Positions 6,608 to 63,723 of a DNA stretch of 64,000 bases are shown piece after piece. This DNA comes from a virus. Location of the stretch: positions 32,001 to 96,000 of IMG/VR virus record IMGVR_UViG_3300025150_000004. One strand, given 5' to 3'. Within the stretch, counting starts at the first letter, position 1, and each line of letters opens with the position of its first letter. A program made the position numbers and the translations under genes. A model generated the notes under the pieces. It had not been told where the DNA came from. It was given only the letters and a program-made list of their open reading frames with translations, and made no database searches.

Positions 6608-8976
6608 TGGCGTCTGGTTCTTACTACGAGGGGCGGGTCCACACCGTCCTGTTCGACGATTCAGCGGAGGCGTTCTACATCCTCAAGGTCCGCCTTGATG
6701 ATGAGGCCAGCGGCCTCGCCGGGATGCCAGGGCTCGCCGAGCCGGTCACGGTTCGGGGGCACATCCCCGGGATCAAGGTCGAGGTGGGGTGCTGGTTGGG
6801 ATTCGAGGCGACCTGGACCAAGCACGAGAAGTACGGAAAACAGCTTCGGATCACCCGTGCCCCGGTCCTGAAGAACGGCTGGGACGCCGAGACCGCCGAA
6901 AGAATCCTGTCTTCCAACGGGGTGGGCCACCAGGTTTGCCGTCTGATCCGCCAGCACTTCGGCGACGACAAGTTCCTCGACGCCCTCGGCGATCCCAAGA
7001 AGCTCCGCAAGGTTCCCGGCCTGGCCAAGTTCTCCGCCACCCACGTCGCCGAGAGGTGGGCGGCCACCCGGACGTTCTTCCAGACCCTCGGGTTCCTCTC
7101 AGACCTGGGGCTCCCTCCTGGGAAGGTCCGGCAGGTGTGGCGAACGTTCGAGGACGAGGCCGAGAAGATCCTGTCCTCGAACCCATGGGAACTGGTCCGC
7201 ATCGAGGGCATCACCTTCTCCAACGCTGATGAGATCGCCCGGCGGCTGGGCCTGGACCTCACCCACCCGAACCGAATGCGTGGGGCGGTGTTGTATGCGG
7301 CCCAGACTTTCGGCAGCTTCGGCCACACGTACATGTCCACGGGTCATCTGTGGGGCCAGACGAGCACGCTCATTGGAGAACCGGACAAGCAGGCGTTCGC
7401 CGAGGCCCTCACGGCTCTCCACAAGGAGGGGCTCCTGGTCATCGACCGGACAACCAAGCCCGGAACGACCGCCATCTACGAGCCCTTCGCTCATCTGATG
7501 GAGAAGGAGGGGGCCGAGCGGCTCCTCGCTCGCCAGAAGACCGCAGCATTCGGGCCGGGCGGGATAGATGCCGCCGAGTACATGGGGAAGTTGGCTGGGT
7601 TCGGCCCCCTGACCGAAGGGGCCGCCTCGGGTGGAGACCTGGAGGCGACCGTGAAGGCCGCCGTTCGGGAGTGGGGGCACCAATCGTCCATCGATCTTTC
7701 CCCACGGCAACGCCAGGGAGTCGTAAATGCCCTCCTCCACCCGGTCAGCGTTCTCACCGGACTTCCTGGGACGGGGAAGACCACCAGTCTGAAGGCGGCC
7801 GTGGGCATTCTTCAGGACGCCGAGGTCCGGTTCCTCCTCTGTGCCCCGACCGGCATCGCCGCCAAGCGGTTGTCCGCCCTCACGGGGTCGAAGGCGTACA
7901 CCATCCACCGGGCCTTCTCGGCAAAGGGGAAGTCGGACGATGGCCGAGAGGCCACCTACGCTGGGATCGTCGGGGAGACCAAGAGGGCGAGCAAGTCGGG
8001 AGAGGACCAGTCTGACTGGGGGTTCAGTCAAGAGCACCCTCATCCGGCCCAGGTGGTCATCGTGGACGAAGCCTCGATGATCGACCAGCACCTTCTGTTC
8101 CGGCTGCTCGACTGCACCGCCCCCACCTGCCGGATCGTGTTCGTCGGAGACGCTGCACAGCTTCCTTCGGTTGGCCCGGGGAACGTGCTACGGGAGATGA
8201 TCTCCAGTGGCCTGTTTCCGGTCACCAAGCTCACGACCATTTTCCGCCAAGAGGACACCTCGGACATCGTCTTTGCCGCCCACGACATCCACAAGGGCGA
8301 GGTCCCCGATGTATCCAACCCGAAGAGCGACTTCGTCCTCATCCACGTCGAGGACGAGGACAAGGTGCTCGGGACCATCTGCAAGCTGGCAGAGCGTCTC
8401 TACGAGAAGCGGACGGAGTTCCAGATTCTCTCCCCACGCCATGCTGGAACCGTGGGGGTCACCAAGCTCAACGAGCGTCTGCGGGAGCTTCTGAACCCCA
8501 AGGGGCCGGGCAAGGGGGAGGCTCGGGTCGGCAACGACTGGATGCGGGAGGACGACCGGGTGATGGTCGTCCAGAACGACTACAGCCTGGGGGTTTTCAA
8601 TGGGGACGTGGGCAAGATCAGCCGGGTCTCTCTCAAGGAGAAGGCCATCGAGGTCAAGGTCTTCGGGGAGACCCCCCTGTTCGTCCCCATCGAGTTCAAG
8701 AAGGCCATGAAGCTCATCCGGTTGGCCTACGCCTGCACGGTCCACAAGGCTCAGGGGCTCGAATACGACGTGATCGTGATGCCTGTGGTGGATTCTTTCA
8801 AGCACCAGTTGCAGCGGAACCTCCTGTACACGGCCGTCACCCGAGCCCGCAAGAAGGTCATCCTGGTCGGAACCACTTCGGCCCTCACGAAGGCGGTCCT
8901 CAACGCCCGGGAGGACGAGAGGAACACGTTGTTCCTTGACCGCCTGGGAGGGCTCAACACCGCTCCCGTGGGGTAG
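6607..8976 (+). CDS. recD2: RecD2-like SF1B helicase
   Basis: N-terminal OB-like region (HEKYGKQL), HhH region (NPWELVRIEGITFSNADEIA), GLPGTGKT, APTGIAAKRL, TIHR, VDEASM, GDAAQLPSVGPG, IFRQ, NGDVG, AYACTVHKAQGLEY, LLYTAVTRA. Confidence 0.95.
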   Translation: MASGSYYEGRVHTVLFDDSAEAFYILKVRLDDEASGLAGMPGLAEPVTVRGHIPGIKVEVGCWLGFEATWTKHEKYGKQLRITRAPVLKNGWDAETAERILSSNGVGHQVCRLIRQHFGDDKFLDALGDPKKLRKVPGLAKFSATHVAERWAATRTFFQTLGFLSDLGLPPGKVRQVWRTFEDEAEKILSSNPWELVRIEGITFSNADEIARRLGLDLTHPNRMRGAVLYAAQTFGSFGHTYMSTGHLWGQTSTLIGEPDKQAFAEALTALHKEGLLVIDRTTKPGTTAIYEPFAHLMEKEGAERLLARQKTAAFGPGGIDAAEYMGKLAGFGPLTEGAASGGDLEATVKAAVREWGHQSSIDLSPRQRQGVVNALLHPVSVLTGLPGTGKTTSLKAAVGILQDAEVRFLLCAPTGIAAKRLSALTGSKAYTIHRAFSAKGKSDDGREATYAGIVGETKRASKSGEDQSDWGFSQEHPHPAQVVIVDEASMIDQHLLFRLLDCTAPTCRIVFVGDAAQLPSVGPGNVLREMISSGLFPVTKLTTIFRQEDTSDIVFAAHDIHKGEVPDVSNPKSDFVLIHVEDEDKVLGTICKLAERLYEKRTEFQILSPRHAGTVGVTKLNERLRELLNPKGPGKGEARVGNDWMREDDRVMVVQNDYSLGVFNGDVGKISRVSLKEKAIEVKVFGETPLFVPIEFKKAMKLIRLAYACTVHKAQGLEYDVIVMPVVDSFKHQLQRNLLYTAVTRARKKVILVGTTSALTKAVLNAREDERNTLFLDRLGGLNTAPVG

Positions 8977-18431: not shown

Positions 18432-19412
18432 ATGAGCCGCAAGAAATTCACGCTCTACTGGTCGAGCCTCAAGCTCTACGAGGATTGCCCCCAGGCTTTC
18501 CTGTGGAGCAGAGGTTGGGGGGCCATCGACGTAGGTGGGGGGCCAGGTCGCCCCAAGCCGAGGCCCTTCAAGGACAGCCGCCACCATGCCGTGATGGGCA
18601 TCGTCATCCAGTCCGTGCTGGAGTCGATGTACAACAAGGAGTGGTGGAAGCACCCCACGGAACTCAAGAAGCTCCTCGACGAGGAGCTTGAGCGGCAGTT
18701 CAAGCTGGAGATCACCAAGAACTACATCGACTGGCGGCTCGCAGGACCCAAGGACGAGATGTTCCGGGTCTGCCGGGACGGGGTGTACGGGTTCCTCAAG
18801 ACCCTCAAGGCCCACAAGCTGGTCGGCCAGTACGCCCGCTGTGAGGTGGACTACGTCGCCTACATCGACAAGTGGAGCCCGGTGGGCGGCCGGATGGACT
18901 TCCTGATCCGGCGGAACGACGAACCCAACAAGGGGATCACCATCCTCGACGGCAAGAACTCCAAGCACCGGGGGAAGTACACCGACCCGGACCAGCTTCG
19001 GTTCTACGCCCTGGTCTTTTACCTCAACACGGGGGTCATGCCTGACCGGCTCGGGTTCATCTACTTCCGGTTCCCTCACGGGTACATCCCGCCCGAGGAA
19101 GAGTGGGAGAAGGACGCAGAGGGCAACCCGATCAAGCCCGAGCCCGACTCGGGGGTCGAATGGGTGCCGTTCTCCCGGGAAGACCTCAAGGGGCTGGCTC
19201 TGCGGGCCTTGGAGGCCCGCAAAGGGATCGAGAAGGAGAAGTTCGAGGCTACGCCCAAGCCCTCCATGTGCAAGCTGTGTGACTTCGAGAGCGTGTGTCC
19301 TCAACGCCAGACTCAGATCGCCTCCAATCGTCGGCAGCCCAAGAACAAGGAGGAGGCGTTCGACGGGACCACCGGCTTCGTCGAGTTCGGCTTCGGCTCC
19401 GAGAGGGGATAG
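18432..19412 (+). CDS. PD-(D/E)XK nuclease, Cas4/RecB/AddB-like with probable Fe-S cluster
   Basis: SSLKLYEDCP, GRMD, ILDGK, QLRFY, C-terminal CKLCDFESVCP. Confidence 0.88.
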   Translation: MSRKKFTLYWSSLKLYEDCPQAFLWSRGWGAIDVGGGPGRPKPRPFKDSRHHAVMGIVIQSVLESMYNKEWWKHPTELKKLLDEELERQFKLEITKNYIDWRLAGPKDEMFRVCRDGVYGFLKTLKAHKLVGQYARCEVDYVAYIDKWSPVGGRMDFLIRRNDEPNKGITILDGKNSKHRGKYTDPDQLRFYALVFYLNTGVMPDRLGFIYFRFPHGYIPPEEEWEKDAEGNPIKPEPDSGVEWVPFSREDLKGLALRALEARKGIEKEKFEATPKPSMCKLCDFESVCPQRQTQIASNRRQPKNKEEAFDGTTGFVEFGFGSERG

Positions 19413-21559: not shown

Positions 21560-22222
21560 ATGAGGACCGAGGGTCAAGTACGGCACAAGCTCAAGCAGGT
21601 GTTCTATCGCCACCTGTCCAAACGGTTGGCCGAGGGCCTGGCCGAGGTGCCGGAAAACTGCATGTACAACCGGCGGCCAAGTACGCATCCCCGGATGACG
21701 CCCCTCGAAGACCTTCCTCGGGTCTGCATCCATGCGGAACAGGCCGGGGCCATCTGTGACCGGAACCACGAATCTTCCGCCGATTACGCCTCCTGCCCGT
21801 TTTTCGTTCCGGTGAAATCCAAGGAGGTGCTCAAGCGGGAGTTCGTCGAGTTGGCCCGGAAGAAGCGGGACATCGTGGCCGAGATGATGCCGGACGCTGC
21901 GGCCCTCATGTGGGTGCTCGAAATGGAGGGCGGAGTCCCAGAGGGGGAGGCAGAGAGCGCTGCCAACGGCGAGGCCGAGGGGGATGAGGAAGAGGAGCCT
22001 GCCCCAGTGGTGGTGCGGCGGGAGAAGGCCCCCGTATTCGAGATGGGGGAGCAGGGGGACGTAGCCCTGGTGAAGTTCGACCTTCCTCCCCTGGATATGA
22101 TCGACCGCCCGACCCCTCGATGGTGGGCCTTCTGGCGATGGCGGATGTGGCCTTGGAACTGGTTCCGCTCAGGATCCGAGCCACTGGACTGCCCCATCGC
22201 CTCACCCGGGGCGGACGGATGA
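21560..22222 (+). CDS. Hypothetical Cys-rich protein
   Basis: Four Cys (CMYN, CIH, CDRNH, CPFF); Trp-rich C-terminal segment. Confidence 0.65.
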   Translation: MRTEGQVRHKLKQVFYRHLSKRLAEGLAEVPENCMYNRRPSTHPRMTPLEDLPRVCIHAEQAGAICDRNHESSADYASCPFFVPVKSKEVLKREFVELARKKRDIVAEMMPDAAALMWVLEMEGGVPEGEAESAANGEAEGDEEEEPAPVVVRREKAPVFEMGEQGDVALVKFDLPPLDMIDRPTPRWWAFWRWRMWPWNWFRSGSEPLDCPIASPGADG

Positions 22223-26073: not shown

Positions 26074-26853
26074 ATGGGCTGGTCTGGACACCGCATGATC
26101 GATCCAACCGAGATAGAGGCTCGCTTCAGTGTGGAGGACGGCATGGCGTACATGGCGTCCATCTTCACGGAGCCCACCGACGACGACCTGGAGCGGATCG
26201 AGGTCATCCGGGGCATCATGGAGTCGCTCCCTGCCAGGGAGGCCGATTTCGTGGACCTCTACTTCTTCCGTCGGAAGAAGCAGACCGAGATCGCCTTCAT
26301 CTTCGACTGCTCCCAGCCCACCGTCTGCTATCGCCTCCAACGAGCAACCGCCCGGATCCGTTTCCTCCTCGACCTGCCCAAGGTCGAGGAGAAGGAACTC
26401 CTTCGGGACATGCGGGCGTTCCTGAAGGACGACCTGGACGTTCAGATCATGCACCTGATGTGGTTGACCACCTGCCAGTCGGAGGCCGCCAAACGCCTCG
26501 GGGTCAGCCAGGGGCTCGTCCGGCACAGGTTCATGCGCTCCATCAAACGGATGCGCTCCTTCATCGAGGTCCCACGTCGCTATCAGGAACTCGACGCCCT
26601 CCGAGCCCAGTTCGACGCCGCCGAGGCCCCCGCCGACAAGATGGCCATCAACGGCCAGATGAAGGATGTGCGGGACCAGTTCAACGCCGTCCTGAAGTGG
26701 GTCCCCAAGGAAGCACAGGACGACCCCTCCCGCTATGAGATCTACGTCCGTCTGTTCGAGTTCATCTTCGCCAACCTGAACATCCTCCGAGAGGTCCAGC
26801 GACCCGCCTGGGACTGCCGGGTCGTTCGGAAGATCGACTCTCCGCCCGCCTGA
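26074..26853 (+). CDS. Sigma-70 region-4-like protein with two HTH motifs; possible phage sigma factor (start may be 26095)
   Basis: LPAREADFVDLYFFRRKKQTEIAFIFDCSQPTVCYRLQRA and CQSEAAKRLGVSQGLVRHRF. Confidence 0.7.
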   Translation: MGWSGHRMIDPTEIEARFSVEDGMAYMASIFTEPTDDDLERIEVIRGIMESLPAREADFVDLYFFRRKKQTEIAFIFDCSQPTVCYRLQRATARIRFLLDLPKVEEKELLRDMRAFLKDDLDVQIMHLMWLTTCQSEAAKRLGVSQGLVRHRFMRSIKRMRSFIEVPRRYQELDALRAQFDAAEAPADKMAINGQMKDVRDQFNAVLKWVPKEAQDDPSRYEIYVRLFEFIFANLNILREVQRPAWDCRVVRKIDSPPA

Positions 26854-26861
26854 TCCGCCCC

Positions 26862-26875
26862 GGTATTCAGCCTAT
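26862..26875 (+). promoter_or_regulatory. Putative late promoter, GGT-N7-CTAT
   Basis: GGTATTCAGCCTAT; same spacing recurs at 29767, 38796 and 61609 (minus strand), with variants at 47572 and 55096. Confidence 0.6.
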
Positions 26876-26911
26876 GGTCGGGCCTCGATAGAGGCGCACC
26901 TGGGTGAGGCC

Positions 26912-53362: not shown

Positions 53363-55023
53363 GCACTCGCAACCGTTCGACGTGGGCGGCGGACAAGAAG
53401 GCAGGTCAGGCACCTGCGGTCCCCGGCTACGGATCCGAAGACCAGGACCACCCGGCTCACAAGCCGGAGCCCGGCTACGCCGACTACAAGAAGGGTGACC
53501 CGGACGCCTGGGCCGAGACGCCGAACCCGCCCCCGTACCCCGAGGGCAACCCGCCGTCCGTCCCCGGCTACGACACCGAGGATCAGGACCACCCGGCCCA
53601 CAAGAGGAACCCCCGGGTGGAGAAGCTGTCCTCGCTGGTGGAGAAGAAGGCCAAGAAGGCCCTCGTCATCGCCAGCCACATGCTGGGCAAGGAGGCCACC
53701 AAGGAGGCCGTCGAGCTTCAGGCTCTCGACCTCATGGACATGGACGATGCCGTGATGGAGGCGACCCTCAAGCGCCTCGGCGGCGGCTTCATGGCCGACG
53801 ACGACATGGACCCGATGTACGACATGGAGCCCGAACTCGACGAGGTCGAGCCCATGGCGTGCGGGGCCATGTACGGCCTCGAAGACATGGAGATGGAGGG
53901 GCCGATGGGCGTGTTCGCCAACGCCCTCAAGGCCATCGCCACCGACCTGAAGGCCCTCAAGGACGCCAACCAGAACCAGTACCCCGGCCCGACGCTCGGG
54001 GGACCGGCGAAGGACGAGGCAGGTGCTCGGGCCGAGGCTTCCCAGGTCTCCGGCCTGGAGGCCAAGGCTCGTGCCGAGGGTGCCGCAGCGGCCAAGGGCG
54101 AGGTCCACGCCTCTGTCTTCGACGGCATGGACAAGGACCGGGACGGCTTCGTGACGGCCTCCGAGTTCACGGGCAGCAAGGCGATCTTCGCCGCCATCGA
54201 CGTGGACGCCGACGGCATCATCTCCAAGTCCGAGTACGTCGCCGCCTTCTCGGCCACCGCCAAGAAGGCCGAGGACGACGAGGACGAGGATGGCAAGGAG
54301 GCCGCCAAGAAGGCCGAGGACGACGAGGACGACAAGGGCAAGGAGGCCAAGAAGGCCGACGACGCCATGCTCGACCTCATGGCCAGCCTCTCCGACGACG
54401 AGATCGCCATGCTCCACCAGGCGTCCGAGGACGACAAGGAGAACGGCGACGACGAGGAGACCGCCGCCAAGAAGGCCGCTGCTCGACTCGCTCAGCTTCG
54501 GGCCGAGGCCGGGTGCGACAAGCTCCCGCCCGCCCTGAAGGAGAAGTGCGAGGAGAAGTCCGGCAAGGGCGACGACAAGGGCGACGACAAGGGCAAGGAG
54601 GCCGCCAAGAAGGCCGACGACGACGAGGACGAGGACGACGAGCCCGAGGACAAGGGCGAGGAGTCCGAGGGCGGTGACGAGGACGACGACAAGGAGGCCG
54701 CCAAGAAGGCCACCGAGGACGCCGCCTTCTTCGCCTCCACCGGGGACCCCATGGGCCTCGGCGGGGACCCGTCCCACGGTCTGAACCTCACGGCCGAGGA
54801 CGAGGCGGTGCTCAACGAGATCTTCGCCGCCGACGTGCCGAACACGGCGTCCGCCCTCCCGGGTGACGCCGTCGAGGCGGCCATGAAGCCCCAGCCGAAG
54901 CAGGCGAGCACCGGCTCGACCGCCCCGGTCGGCAACATGACCCGCACGGCCTCGGGCGGGATCTCGGACCTCTCCCAGCTTTGGGAGTCGGCTCCCGACG
55001 TGTCCAAGGTCTTCGGCGTCTGA
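53359..55023 (+). CDS. Putative capsid scaffolding protein, acidic, with an EF-hand pair
   Basis: Between protease and capsid genes; D/E/K/A low complexity; duplicated PGYxxEDQDHPAHK; EF loops DKDRDGFVTASE and DVDADGIISKSE. Confidence 0.7.
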   Translation: MSTRNRSTWAADKKAGQAPAVPGYGSEDQDHPAHKPEPGYADYKKGDPDAWAETPNPPPYPEGNPPSVPGYDTEDQDHPAHKRNPRVEKLSSLVEKKAKKALVIASHMLGKEATKEAVELQALDLMDMDDAVMEATLKRLGGGFMADDDMDPMYDMEPELDEVEPMACGAMYGLEDMEMEGPMGVFANALKAIATDLKALKDANQNQYPGPTLGGPAKDEAGARAEASQVSGLEAKARAEGAAAAKGEVHASVFDGMDKDRDGFVTASEFTGSKAIFAAIDVDADGIISKSEYVAAFSATAKKAEDDEDEDGKEAAKKAEDDEDDKGKEAKKADDAMLDLMASLSDDEIAMLHQASEDDKENGDDEETAAKKAAARLAQLRAEAGCDKLPPALKEKCEEKSGKGDDKGDDKGKEAAKKADDDEDEDDEPEDKGEESEGGDEDDDKEAAKKATEDAAFFASTGDPMGLGGDPSHGLNLTAEDEAVLNEIFAADVPNTASALPGDAVEAAMKPQPKQASTGSTAPVGNMTRTASGGISDLSQLWESAPDVSKVFGV

Positions 55024-61609: not shown

Positions 61610-61694
61610 GAAAGGAGTGCTGTTGTGAGGGGGTAGAGCGGCCCTTGGCGTGGGGTAGATGGGGAGGACAGCACGACCCCGAACGGAGGGAAAC

Positions 61695-62876
61695 ATGAGC
61701 GACGGGTTCACGTTCCACGGCTTCCAGCGAGGCCCCCAGATCTACGCCACACGGCACACCATCCTCCTTCTCCTGGCTCTCAACGACATCTGGAAGCAGG
61801 AGAAGGCGAAGTACCAGTTCACCGGAGGCTTCGACCCGGCGAGGCACTTCCACAAGCCGACCCTGCTCGCTGACCTGGCCAGAGCCATCGCCCCGGTCAT
61901 CAAGAAGGTGCTGACCCCAGGGGACGTGTACGCCCACCTGCTCTACCTGTCCGAGCGGAAGCTCGGGTCGGACACGGTGATGGTGCGGAACCATCCCGGC
62001 AACGAGAAGGCCGGGGAGCCCATTTTCCAGATGGGCAAGGCGGGCGAGGAACTCTGCGACATCATCGACAACCGTGGCGTCCGGGCGTTCATCGAGAGCG
62101 ACCCCACCAACTGGCACGCCCTGGTGATGTACGCCCGCCTCGTGGAGTCCGGCCAGTGCAGCCCGTCCGTCTGGACGCCGGAGAACATCGGCAGCCTGAC
62201 CGGCCTCACGGAGAGCCAGATCCGCAAGGCGATCAAAACCCTCCAGCAGGGGTTCACGAGCAAGGCCGGGGACCAGGAGTTCACGCTCGCTGCCGGGTCT
62301 CTCGTGGTGGAGGGGACCCGTCGTTTCCCGAAGTACAAGCTGGCTGCGAGCCTGCGGGTCTCCGCCAGCCCCGAGATCGGTGACCTCGACTTCGAGGAGG
62401 ACCCGAAGGCCCTCCGTCAGAAGGCCCAGACGGCGACGTTCCAGCAGATCTACGGCGGGAAGGGGCCACAGGGGAACGGCCGGGCGGCAGCAGCGGCGGA
62501 CGCCTTCATGGAGGAGTTCACCAAGCCCGAGGCCGACCCCGAGCCGACCCCCAGCGTTCCCGCATCCCGGCCCATCGGAGCCAAGGCCAACATCTCCGAC
62601 CAGGAAGTGGCCATCCTCCAGGCGGAGGCGATCCGACTCCGCATCTCGCTCGACTCCCTCATGACCCTCATCATCAAGACGGGCATCGAGGGCATCGAAC
62701 GGGAGAACGTCAACCGGGAGACGGCCGAGGCCAAGCGTCGGGAGGCCGAGGAGGCCCTGCGGAAGGAGGAGGAGGAGGCCCAGCGTGCGGCTCAGGCAGC
62801 AGCCGAGCGGCTGGCCGAGATCCAGCGGCGGCGGGCCGCCCTGGGGTCCGAGACAGGCGCATCACCGGCCCCCTAG
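61695..62876 (+). CDS. Hypothetical protein (possible winged-helix region plus C-terminal coiled coil)
   Basis: GGAGGG RBS; TPENIGSLTGLTESQIRKAIKTL is HTH-like. Confidence 0.7.
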   Translation: MSDGFTFHGFQRGPQIYATRHTILLLLALNDIWKQEKAKYQFTGGFDPARHFHKPTLLADLARAIAPVIKKVLTPGDVYAHLLYLSERKLGSDTVMVRNHPGNEKAGEPIFQMGKAGEELCDIIDNRGVRAFIESDPTNWHALVMYARLVESGQCSPSVWTPENIGSLTGLTESQIRKAIKTLQQGFTSKAGDQEFTLAAGSLVVEGTRRFPKYKLAASLRVSASPEIGDLDFEEDPKALRQKAQTATFQQIYGGKGPQGNGRAAAAADAFMEEFTKPEADPEPTPSVPASRPIGAKANISDQEVAILQAEAIRLRISLDSLMTLIIKTGIEGIERENVNRETAEAKRREAEEALRKEEEEAQRAAQAAAERLAEIQRRRAALGSETGASPAP

Positions 62877-62903
62877 AAAAACGACTCGGGTCGAAAAAAG
62901 TTG

Positions 62904-62932
62904 TTGACGGCGGATCCGGGTTCAAGTACAAC
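62904..62932 (+). promoter_or_regulatory. Host sigma70-type promoter
   Basis: TTGACG-N17-TACAAC preceded by an A-tract (UP-like). Confidence 0.7.
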
Positions 62933-62937
62933 GTCTC

Positions 62938-63370
62938 TTGCCGGTTGGGACTGCCCCCGAGAAATCGAGGATGGTTCCCAAACGGAGCACCGAGGGTCGA
63001 AGGTTCGCAACCTGAAACCGGAGGTGAGTGGGAGGTCGGGCGAAGGCCATTCCCACGGAAGGCGCTGACCATTCAGGTGGTCATGGGCTTCACCTGAAAA
63101 GGAAGTCCTGGGTTCTGAAACATGGACCCGAACCCCATGGCGGGGAAGATAGCGAGCGCCGCTATCGTTCTCACCCGCCTTCGCAGAGGTCAACCGGGCA
63201 ATCGGCGAGCCAAAGCGACCCTGCCCTCCCCGGGCAACCGGGAGAGGGAGCCAGTCGGGTAACCGGGTGGTGGGACGGGGGAACTCAAGGACCCGTAACA
63301 GGGTCCAGCGGTTCAGCAATGCCCAGCGGGTCCGGCCGTCTTCGGCCGGACCCGCTGGGCATTCTTGTTT
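62938..63370 (+). ncRNA. Unidentified large structured RNA, about 430 nt
   Basis: Lies between a sigma70 promoter and a strong terminator; no coding-like ORF; dense helices with GNRA loops. Confidence 0.6.
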
Positions 63371-63371
63371 T
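63318..63371 (+). terminator. Intrinsic terminator
   Basis: 21-bp perfect stem (AATGCCCAGCGGGTCCGGCCG and its complement) followed by CTTGTTTT. Confidence 0.85.
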
Positions 63372-63446
63372 AGGACCCCGGAAAAGGTCTACTGTCCTCG
63401 GTATCGTGACGCCAGCCCTTTCGGCTCCACGAGAATGAGGCGAAGA

Positions 63447-63686
63447 ATGCCGACCATCCGGCGACTGGACGTTCCCATCATCCTGGGTTGTCAACCCCCG
63501 GCAGGTCAATTCGCCAATGCGTTTCGAATCCTGAACGCCGACTCGGGCTGCGTGCTGGAGTTCCTGGTGTACTCCCCTCGTGAGAACAAGGCATTCCTCG
63601 TTCATCGCATCCGGCTCTCCCAAGAACTCCTTCCCGTCATCAAAGACCAGGTGAGGTGCGCTTTGGACCCCCAACACGCTTGTTGA
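63447..63686 (+). CDS. Small hypothetical protein, possibly DUF3467-like
   Basis: FANAFRI ... LEF ... HRIRLS pattern; start may be 63435. Confidence 0.5.
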   Translation: MPTIRRLDVPIILGCQPPAGQFANAFRILNADSGCVLEFLVYSPRENKAFLVHRIRLSQELLPVIKDQVRCALDPQHAC

Positions 63687-63723
63687 TCGGGGCATGGGTA
63701 GAGTGTGGAGCTACGGAGGTTTG

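Follow-up and report, generated by a model that had tools for sequence, protein, structure and literature searches.

Does the gap between two genes near the end of this stretch of viral DNA encode an RNA of its own and, if so, of what kind? The window, that is the whole 64,000-nt stretch that was analysed, comprises bases 32001-96000 of a 142,891-bp IMG/VR virus record, which is approximately 27% complete as estimated by CheckV and has a GC content of 64%. A first-pass annotation had placed in this gap a highly structured RNA of ~430 nt, of no family that it could name, with a host-type promoter and a terminator of its own. That description was borne out in that the gap is non-coding, is conserved in syntenic positions, exhibits strong covariation and matches no Rfam model. 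The locus and the gene preceding it are:

61659-62876, + strand: upstream protein, 405 aa, without a Pfam or PHROGs family
62904-63371, + strand: RNA locus, consisting of promoter, ~430 nt and terminator

The 405-aa gene ends at 62876 (+) and the next gene, a small one, starts at 63435 or 63447 (+). Codon-position GC was analysed across the region. Third-position GC was approximately 0.9 in either flanking gene, and the frame periodicity was gone across 62850-63450. The stretch between the flanking genes is non-coding, in agreement with the earlier remark that no coding-like ORF was present; the long open frames listed in the gap were regarded as GC-rich noise, because frame periodicity is lost there.

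The signals that delimit the RNA, with the promoter elements as read from the sequence, are:

62890-62932, + strand: sigma-70-type promoter, conserved across homologues
62894-62899, + strand: A-rich tract of the promoter
62904-62909, + strand: -35 element TTGACG, followed by a 17-nt spacer
62927-62932, + strand: -10 element TACAAC
62940-63371, + strand: putative transcript of ~432 nt, starting from a conserved G and ending in the terminator U-tract
63319-63371, + strand: intrinsic terminator with GC-rich stem, UCUU loop and U-rich tail
63397-63406, + strand: conserved motif CTCGGTATCG, ~30-40 nt before the next gene; it adjoins the RNA and lies outside it
8290-8350 of the genome (23.7 kb before the window start), - strand: tRNA-array promoter, with the same 20 nt as window 62884-62932

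The promoter TTGACG-N17-TACAAC was as first described, and GTTGAC and the -10 element were invariant or nearly so in all homologues. A strict consensus promoter scan missed the site since its -10 ends in C. The start at G62940 was placed on the basis of a conserved G found 8-9 nt past the -10. The terminator stem-loop (63319-63362) has a stem of 20-21 bp, matching the 21 bp originally reported, with a U-tract running to ~63371; it was present in the same place in every member, the stem differing in sequence and the U-rich tail being similar. The start, end, abundance and timing of the transcript are inferred from these signals.

The pattern TTGAC-N17/18-YAYARY occurred at only two sites in the 143-kb contig, one before the tRNA array and one before this RNA, and the two sites have an identical 20 nt upstream (A-tract, GTTG, TTGAC). 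The array lies ~87 kb from the RNA in the contig. The shared promoter form suggests that these phages express the RNA and the tRNAs as one strong 'stable RNA' class. Because of this promoter type, and because the same 20 nt are shared only with the tRNA array, early and abundant synthesis by the host RNA polymerase would be expected.

The motif beyond the terminator, CTCGGTATCG in the window and (C)TCGGTAT(A/C)G more generally, was found in all full-length members as well as in L109 and L111. It has no -35 hexamer and might serve the downstream genes as a phage-type promoter of their own. When the contig was scanned for the motif, there were only nine loose matches with no clear pattern, and it is not thereby shown as a general promoter signal.

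Homologous contigs were found via both flanking proteins in ENA, Logan, NCBI and JGI assemblies, including Tara Oceans samples. Eight homologues, 44-60% identical, were found for the upstream protein and more for the 446-aa downstream protein. These contigs shared gene order and had a gene-free gap of 530-580 nt at the matching place. The same promoter-RNA-terminator unit was present in at least nine other metagenomic contigs of up to 346 kb, which probably come from large phages. The gaps aligned over their full length at 62% mean identity, with GTTGAC-N17 and the -10 invariant. In all there were approximately 10 sequences representing perhaps seven lineages, L008, L009 and L011 being nearly identical.

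The model of the central domain (R1, described below) found the window, L004, L005, L008/L009, L011, L112, which is the most divergent full-length member, L012 and L014 (both partial), L111 (a mini form) and L109. The features defining the new family, namely its own sigma-70-type promoter and terminator and a four-way junction with the loop-loop contact KL2, followed by P7/P8, were found. A further contig, L110, was not found by the domain model; at the syntenic position it has a promoter, then ~430 nt and then a terminator, and, judged by eye, it retains the four-way junction with its junction letters, a P6c hairpin whose loop is unchanged and loop-loop complementarity over 7 bp. Based on synteny and inspection by eye only, L110 is a probable member.

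Wider searches yielded no further member in phage GenBank records (blastn), in IMG/VR (upstream protein, protein alignment and three DNA patterns) or in GTDB genomes (protein alignment and DNA pattern). For the IMG/VR DNA patterns, all 88 matches were rejected by nhmmer and the third pattern gave none. JGI metagenomes contained nothing beyond a copy identical to L005, and no paralogue was found in the remainder of the 143-kb contig. Within the window, a match of the 5' domain model (R2) at 8490-8573 (22 bits, E 0.002), in GC-rich DNA, is probably due to chance, and a match of R1 at 53822-53941 also looks like chance.

To what extent the conserved gap folds was judged from the changes between members. 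From a plain MAFFT alignment of five members, RNAalifold predicted 125 pairs, and 37 of these had compensatory changes. The structure itself was drawn by hand, and three domain models were seeded only on the near-identical trio L008, L009 and L011, so that the remaining members serve as tests of the structure. The strand was assigned as + because of conserved G-U pairs. The resulting model has three domains with ~20 helical segments, four GNRA tetraloops and two covarying kissing contacts (KL1 and KL2):

62941-63056, + strand: 5' domain, containing P2, P3, P4 and P5
62941-62943 with 62983-62985, + strand: P2, in the 5' domain
62946-62980, + strand: P3, hairpin with GAAA loop
62987-63027, + strand: P4, three-part stem
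63028-63056, + strand: P5, hairpin
63005-63043, + strand: KL1, the P4 apical loop UCGC (63005-63008) paired with the P5 loop GCGA (63040-63043)
63059-63136, + strand: central four-way junction with the P6 closing stem, P6a, P6b, P6c and a conserved GAACC junction
63066-63083, + strand: P6a
63085-63108, + strand: P6b
63109-63130, + strand: P6c, followed by GAACC
63072-63098, + strand: KL2, the P6a loop (63072-63078) paired with the P6b loop (63092-63098)
63139-63179, + strand: P7 and P8
63139-63144 with 63174-63179, + strand: P7, enclosing P8
63145-63169, + strand: P8, hairpin
63182-63313, + strand: 3' domain, containing P9, P10 enclosing P11 and P12, and P13
63182-63217, + strand: P9, GCAA loop
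63219-63221 with 63272-63274, + strand: P10, enclosing P11 and P12
63224-63248, + strand: P11, GCAA loop, inside P10
63250-63271, + strand: P12, GUAA loop, inside P10
63282-63313, + strand: P13, with a loop of 5-6 nt

Of the 111 modelled pairs, 64 exhibited compensatory changes, and the other members were paired at 95-97% of cells; as the counting alignments were fitted to the hand-drawn structure and contain few lineages, these numbers lean in its favour. The 5' domain model (R2) matched the window at 62935-63055 with 80 bits, 95.9% of cells being paired and 19 of the 33 pairs compensatory; covariation was 0.426 compared with 0.199 for shuffled and at most 0.12 for slid alignments. For the central domain (R1), the match was at 63060-63183 with 58 bits, with 94.8% of cells paired, compensatory changes in 28/39 pairs and a covariation of 0.616 (shuffled, 0.239). 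The 3' domain (R3) matched at 63182-63320 with 74.5 bits, with 97.4% of cells paired, 17/39 pairs compensatory and a covariation of 0.427 (shuffled, 0.176). When the partner strands were slid, only 27-54% of cells were paired and covariation was at most 0.17, and none of 500 shuffles reached the observed value in any domain. The reality of the covariation signal is supported by the slid controls together with the MAFFT result, which was obtained independently.

Fold energy was less decisive. Relative to dinucleotide shuffles, the + strand gave z = -7.8 with the terminator and -4.9 without it, and the - strand gave -5.6. For the core without terminator, comparison with 743 windows of this 64%-GC contig gave a GC-adjusted z of -2.2, which is only moderately unusual, and the energy of the core was matched by 64 of these windows. 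The most stable 384-nt window of the contig overlaps the 3' half of the RNA and the terminator. Because thermodynamics alone is insufficient in such a GC-rich contig, the claim was based on conservation and covariation. The 64 matching windows and the small number of independent sequences are what could be said for a non-functional GC-rich spacer that folds by composition, its apparent covariation arising from a small, related sample. Such a spacer would not be expected to show double changes at 64 pairs where slid partners pair at only 27-54%, nor covarying loop-loop contacts, nor a conserved promoter and terminator, and the gap is more conserved than expected of a spacer when the flanking proteins are only 44-60% identical. 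The spacer explanation is therefore hardly credible, and we are confident that the locus is a real structured ncRNA gene.

Several of the helices listed in the first-pass annotation reappeared as covarying elements of the model. TTGGGA/TCCCAA with its inner GAAA hairpin is P3, GTGGGA/TCCCAC is P5, GGCGGG/CCCGCC enclosing GATAGCG/CGCTATC is P7/P8, and the GCAA, GCAA and GTAA hairpins are P9, P11 and P12, respectively. The pairing TTCAGGTG/CACCTGAA is also real; however, rather than a plain hairpin, it is a contact between two neighbouring hairpin loops, KL2. GGGCTT and AAGTCC do pair, not as the suggested pseudoknot but as the ordinary hairpin stem P6b. The proposed long-range pairing between 63105 and 63281 was abandoned, as both segments lie in covarying helices (P6b/P6c and P13), the 5' segment is invariant and L112 cannot form it. 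A closing helix P1 (62935-62940 with 63276-63281) is doubtful, because its 5' strand lies 3-8 nt past the -10, probably before the transcript start, and because its changes are one-sided with some mismatches.

The central four-way junction and the hairpin that follows it form, on this comparison, the conserved core. P7 had compensatory changes at all 6 pairs and P8 at 5 of 10; P8 carries a conserved AGCGC loop and is separated from P7 by an asymmetric internal loop. A kink-turn was considered for this internal loop, as a tandem G-A fits 8 of the 10 members, but the window has C-A and a kink-turn is not claimed. A tRNA-like reading of the four-way junction was also rejected, the junction lengths and the loop contact being unfit and the tRNA model giving no match.

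Two natural variants bear on which parts are separable. L111 carries, at 1455-1712, a 'mini' form of ~240 nt in which the central domain has a single hairpin on its 5' side and another on its 3' side, ahead of the terminator; of the full structure, it keeps only the central four-way junction and P7/P8. In its first hairpin, a UUCG cap replaces the kissing loop. The public gene call beside this RNA is over-extended by 45 codons into it. In L109, the RNA was absent from the usual place and a divergent copy, which has a promoter and a terminator of its own, was found at 1570-2120, in another 570-nt gap between a 232-aa gene and an exonuclease gene. This locus is without the winged-helix gene and the small gene, and the gene after the RNA is on the opposite strand.

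Both kissing contacts vary in sequence while remaining complementary. KL1 is UCAC/GUGA in most members, UCGC/GCGA in the window, UAGC/GCUA in L012 and a 3-bp version in L014; 96.6% of cells were paired, compared with at most 47% in the slid controls, and 2 of 4 pairs were compensatory. KL2 (TTCAGGTG/CACCTGAA in the window) was complementary in 9 of 10 members, with other letters in L109 (UUGGC/GCCAA), L112 (CUGG/CCAG), L014 and the probable member L110 (7 bp). Each contact joins neighbouring hairpins of similar length, and could equally form within one molecule or between two. The kissing loops of purine and lysine riboswitches are intramolecular. In GOLLD and ROOL, the covarying 'tertiary' kissing loops are intermolecular bridges of RNA-only cages (bioRxiv 10.1101/2024.12.08.627333).

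With the gene and its fold outlined, the RNA was compared with known families. Among the 4227 models of Rfam 15, none matched the RNA: there was no match in the window and only tRNAs elsewhere in the contig. At E values up to 10, positions 62700-63700 gave only terminator-hairpin noise, and at E up to 1 the six homologous loci examined gave nothing on the RNA. ARAGORN reported two tRNAs only and no tmRNA in the window. The literature searched contained no mention of such an RNA.

These results agree with the initial view that the RNA is not tmRNA, RNase P, 6S or SRP RNA. A tmRNA has a tRNA-like domain formed by its 5' and 3' ends (T-arm, CCA) together with a tag reading frame; here there was no model match and the P13 loop is without a T-loop sequence. 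6S RNA is a long irregular hairpin with a central bubble, and SRP RNA has helix 8 with conserved loops and a tetraloop; neither matched in Rfam, the present structure being a multi-domain set of short hairpins. A replication primer RNA was discounted since the cumulative GC skew has no turning point here and the RNA has a terminator.

RNase P RNA required closer comparison. Like the bacterial form, the RNA would be stable, is of similar size, has a conserved core and a variable periphery, could dock through GNRA loops and occurs in a tRNA-rich setting. RNase P RNA is marked by the P4 pseudoknot, CR-I and CR-V, the P1-P2-P3 order and a P2 closed after P18, and its defining pseudoknot and conserved regions are absent here. 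The models for bacterial A and B, archaeal and type T RNase P gave no match save one of 26 nt on the terminator. CR-I-like letters lie in the covarying stems P6b/P6c, and CR-V-like letters form a hairpin loop that is not kept in L112.

The RNA could nonetheless be a ribozyme, either very divergent and RNase P-like or another processing enzyme for the large and partly unusual tRNA set of the phage. A compact multi-domain fold with GNRA loops would suit this, as would a small conserved core with a variable periphery (the L111 mini form), which is also seen in large ribozymes, the promoter type common to the RNA and the tRNA array, and the absence of a standard RNase P RNA from the 143-kb contig according to Rfam. 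That absence, however, concerns only ~27% of the genome, and the host supplies RNase P anyway. Moreover, RNase P, group I, group II and small-ribozyme models were without a match even at E 10, there is no P4-type pseudoknot and no CR-I/CR-V, and an ACAGA-like P13 loop is not kept in L112. A ribozyme thus appears quite improbable.

Two further observations were made on the surrounding DNA. Two lone tRNA genes lie far from the main array, at window 19173-19262 (Pro-UGG, 90 nt, unusually long for its type) and 22004-22095 (Ser-CGA, 92 nt). Separately, a ~45-nt repeat (GCCTGATCC..CCGGTATTC.GCCTATGGTC.GGCC) has two + strand copies 38 kb apart, which are unexplained:

26835-26900 of the window, + strand: first copy of the ~45-nt repeat
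97016-97080 of the genome (just past the window end), + strand: second copy

Whether the RNA acts on the genes that follow it or as a free molecule is a separate matter. A leader would also be compatible with the arrangement seen in nine loci, where the promoter is followed by the structured RNA, the terminator and genes on the same strand; the promoter at 62904 would then also serve the downstream genes, and the RNA would control passage of the strong terminator, either as a switch that senses a ligand or protein or by processive antitermination, as HK022 put and EAR do. Neighbouring hairpins that kiss, set in a four-way junction, also occur in riboswitch aptamers, and purine, lysine and cobalamin riboswitches have kissing-hairpin aptamers. 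The RNA resembles these three in its junction, its side-by-side hairpins, the covarying loop-loop contact and the GNRA loops, and possibly in a kink-turn-like internal loop (P7/P8), although the window has C-A there rather than G-A. It differs from them in having no Rfam match and no conserved terminator/antiterminator switch, and in being several times larger.

Other aspects of the locus run against a leader. The terminator, with its perfect 20-bp GC-rich stem, greatly exceeds usual expression platforms in strength and lies ~140 nt beyond the conserved core. An overlap between the 5' strands of P13 and the terminator (GGACCC/GGGUCC) exists in the window but has no counterpart in L008 or L112. 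Between terminator and gene lies the motif that may be a promoter, and in L109 the RNA precedes an opposite-strand gene, with no same-strand gene following. Models of riboswitch, T-box and other leader families in Rfam were also without a match. Taken as an independent unit, the RNA has its terminator kept in place, no conserved competing pairing and, in L109, a copy away from the usual genes. A cis-acting leader is accordingly improbable, and it is likely that the RNA acts in trans.

The neighbouring proteins were inspected for a partner. The only one recognised with Pfam and PHROGs was a divergent SbcD-like exonuclease. The 405-aa upstream protein has predicted tandem winged helices, a short RHH-like segment and a C-terminal coiled coil of ~70 residues, its fold giving weak YceH/ScpB/RPC62-like matches; on this prediction it is probably a nucleic-acid-binding regulator. 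For the 79-aa downstream protein, a fold of three strands and one helix was predicted, with no significant match. These proteins point to no RNA function and indicate no protein partner. The RNA was not tied to its neighbours, because it persists where either is missing (L109, L111).

A trans-acting RNA could be a decoy or sponge, its abundance early in infection serving to bind and neutralise a factor of the host, for example RNA polymerase, which 6S RNA is known to bind, an RNA-binding regulator or a nuclease used in defence. A strong host-type promoter and a terminator would suit such a role, and in some helices, for example P6b and the P8 loop, not only the pairing but also the sequence is conserved, which suggests recognition by a partner. 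Yet the RNA has no resemblance to tRNA, 6S RNA or a CRISPR repeat and mimics no known target, no defence or anti-defence gene was recognised adjoining it, and an elaborate 430-nt fold with two kissing loops exceeds the needs of known decoys. We consider a decoy unlikely.

Larger phage RNAs offer closer parallels. GOLLD and ROOL are likewise large, ornate phage or prophage ncRNAs with many helices and covarying kissing loops. They are tied to phage tRNA islands, whereas the link here is a shared promoter type, the RNA not being beside the array. Their covariance models gave no match, and they measure ~580 and >800 nt compared with ~430 nt here. Unlike them, the present RNA is confined to one rare phage group. 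The pRNA of the phi29 family is also a phage structural RNA with an early host-type promoter and a terminator, and it carries a pair of loops that complement each other over ~4 nt and show covariation from phage to phage, as in KL1. In pRNA these loops pair between molecules, building a ring. It differs in its length of 120-174 nt and in its fold, the Rfam pRNA model gave no match, and no link to a packaging motor was seen here; to our knowledge, phages of this size class do not use pRNA.

The explanation that we favour, as probably the best for the locus as a whole, is a stand-alone ncRNA gene of ~430 nt, the first recognised member of a new family in one group of high-GC, very large phages. 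The host RNA polymerase would make the RNA early and in quantity, and synthesis would end at its own terminator. The folded particle would then act in trans, rather than as a message or leader. Through the GNRA loops and kissing loops of the RNA, a compact body, possibly multimeric, would be built that binds or encloses a component of the translation or RNA-processing machinery, a mode of action proposed for GOLLD, ROOL and phi29 pRNA. An architectural or assembly mechanism is put forward tentatively, in view of the separable core, the GNRA loops, the pair of kissing loops and the parallel with these three RNAs. Still bolder, and rather unlikely as a complete proposal, would be a new class of large phage RNA, expressed early from a stable-RNA-type promoter that it has in common with the phage tRNA operon and acting on the translation/RNA-processing machinery of the infected cell, that is either a new ribozyme or the building block of a ring, cage or ribonucleoprotein assembled through its two covarying loop-loop contacts.

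Large, intricately folded ncRNAs are rare, and most of the known classes are ribozymes, ribonucleoprotein cores or self-assembling particles. The RNA described here combines ~111 modelled pairs, two kissing loops and a separable core of ~120 nt, and matches no described family. The hosts of its gene are very large uncultivated phages with much translation-related equipment. RNA-only assembly or new catalysis would be directly testable, the RNA being short enough for in vitro transcription and offering natural variants in the mini form, the relocated copy and the covarying loops. If the architectural reading is true, this RNA would be a further independent phage invention of architectural RNA, beside GOLLD, ROOL and pRNA.
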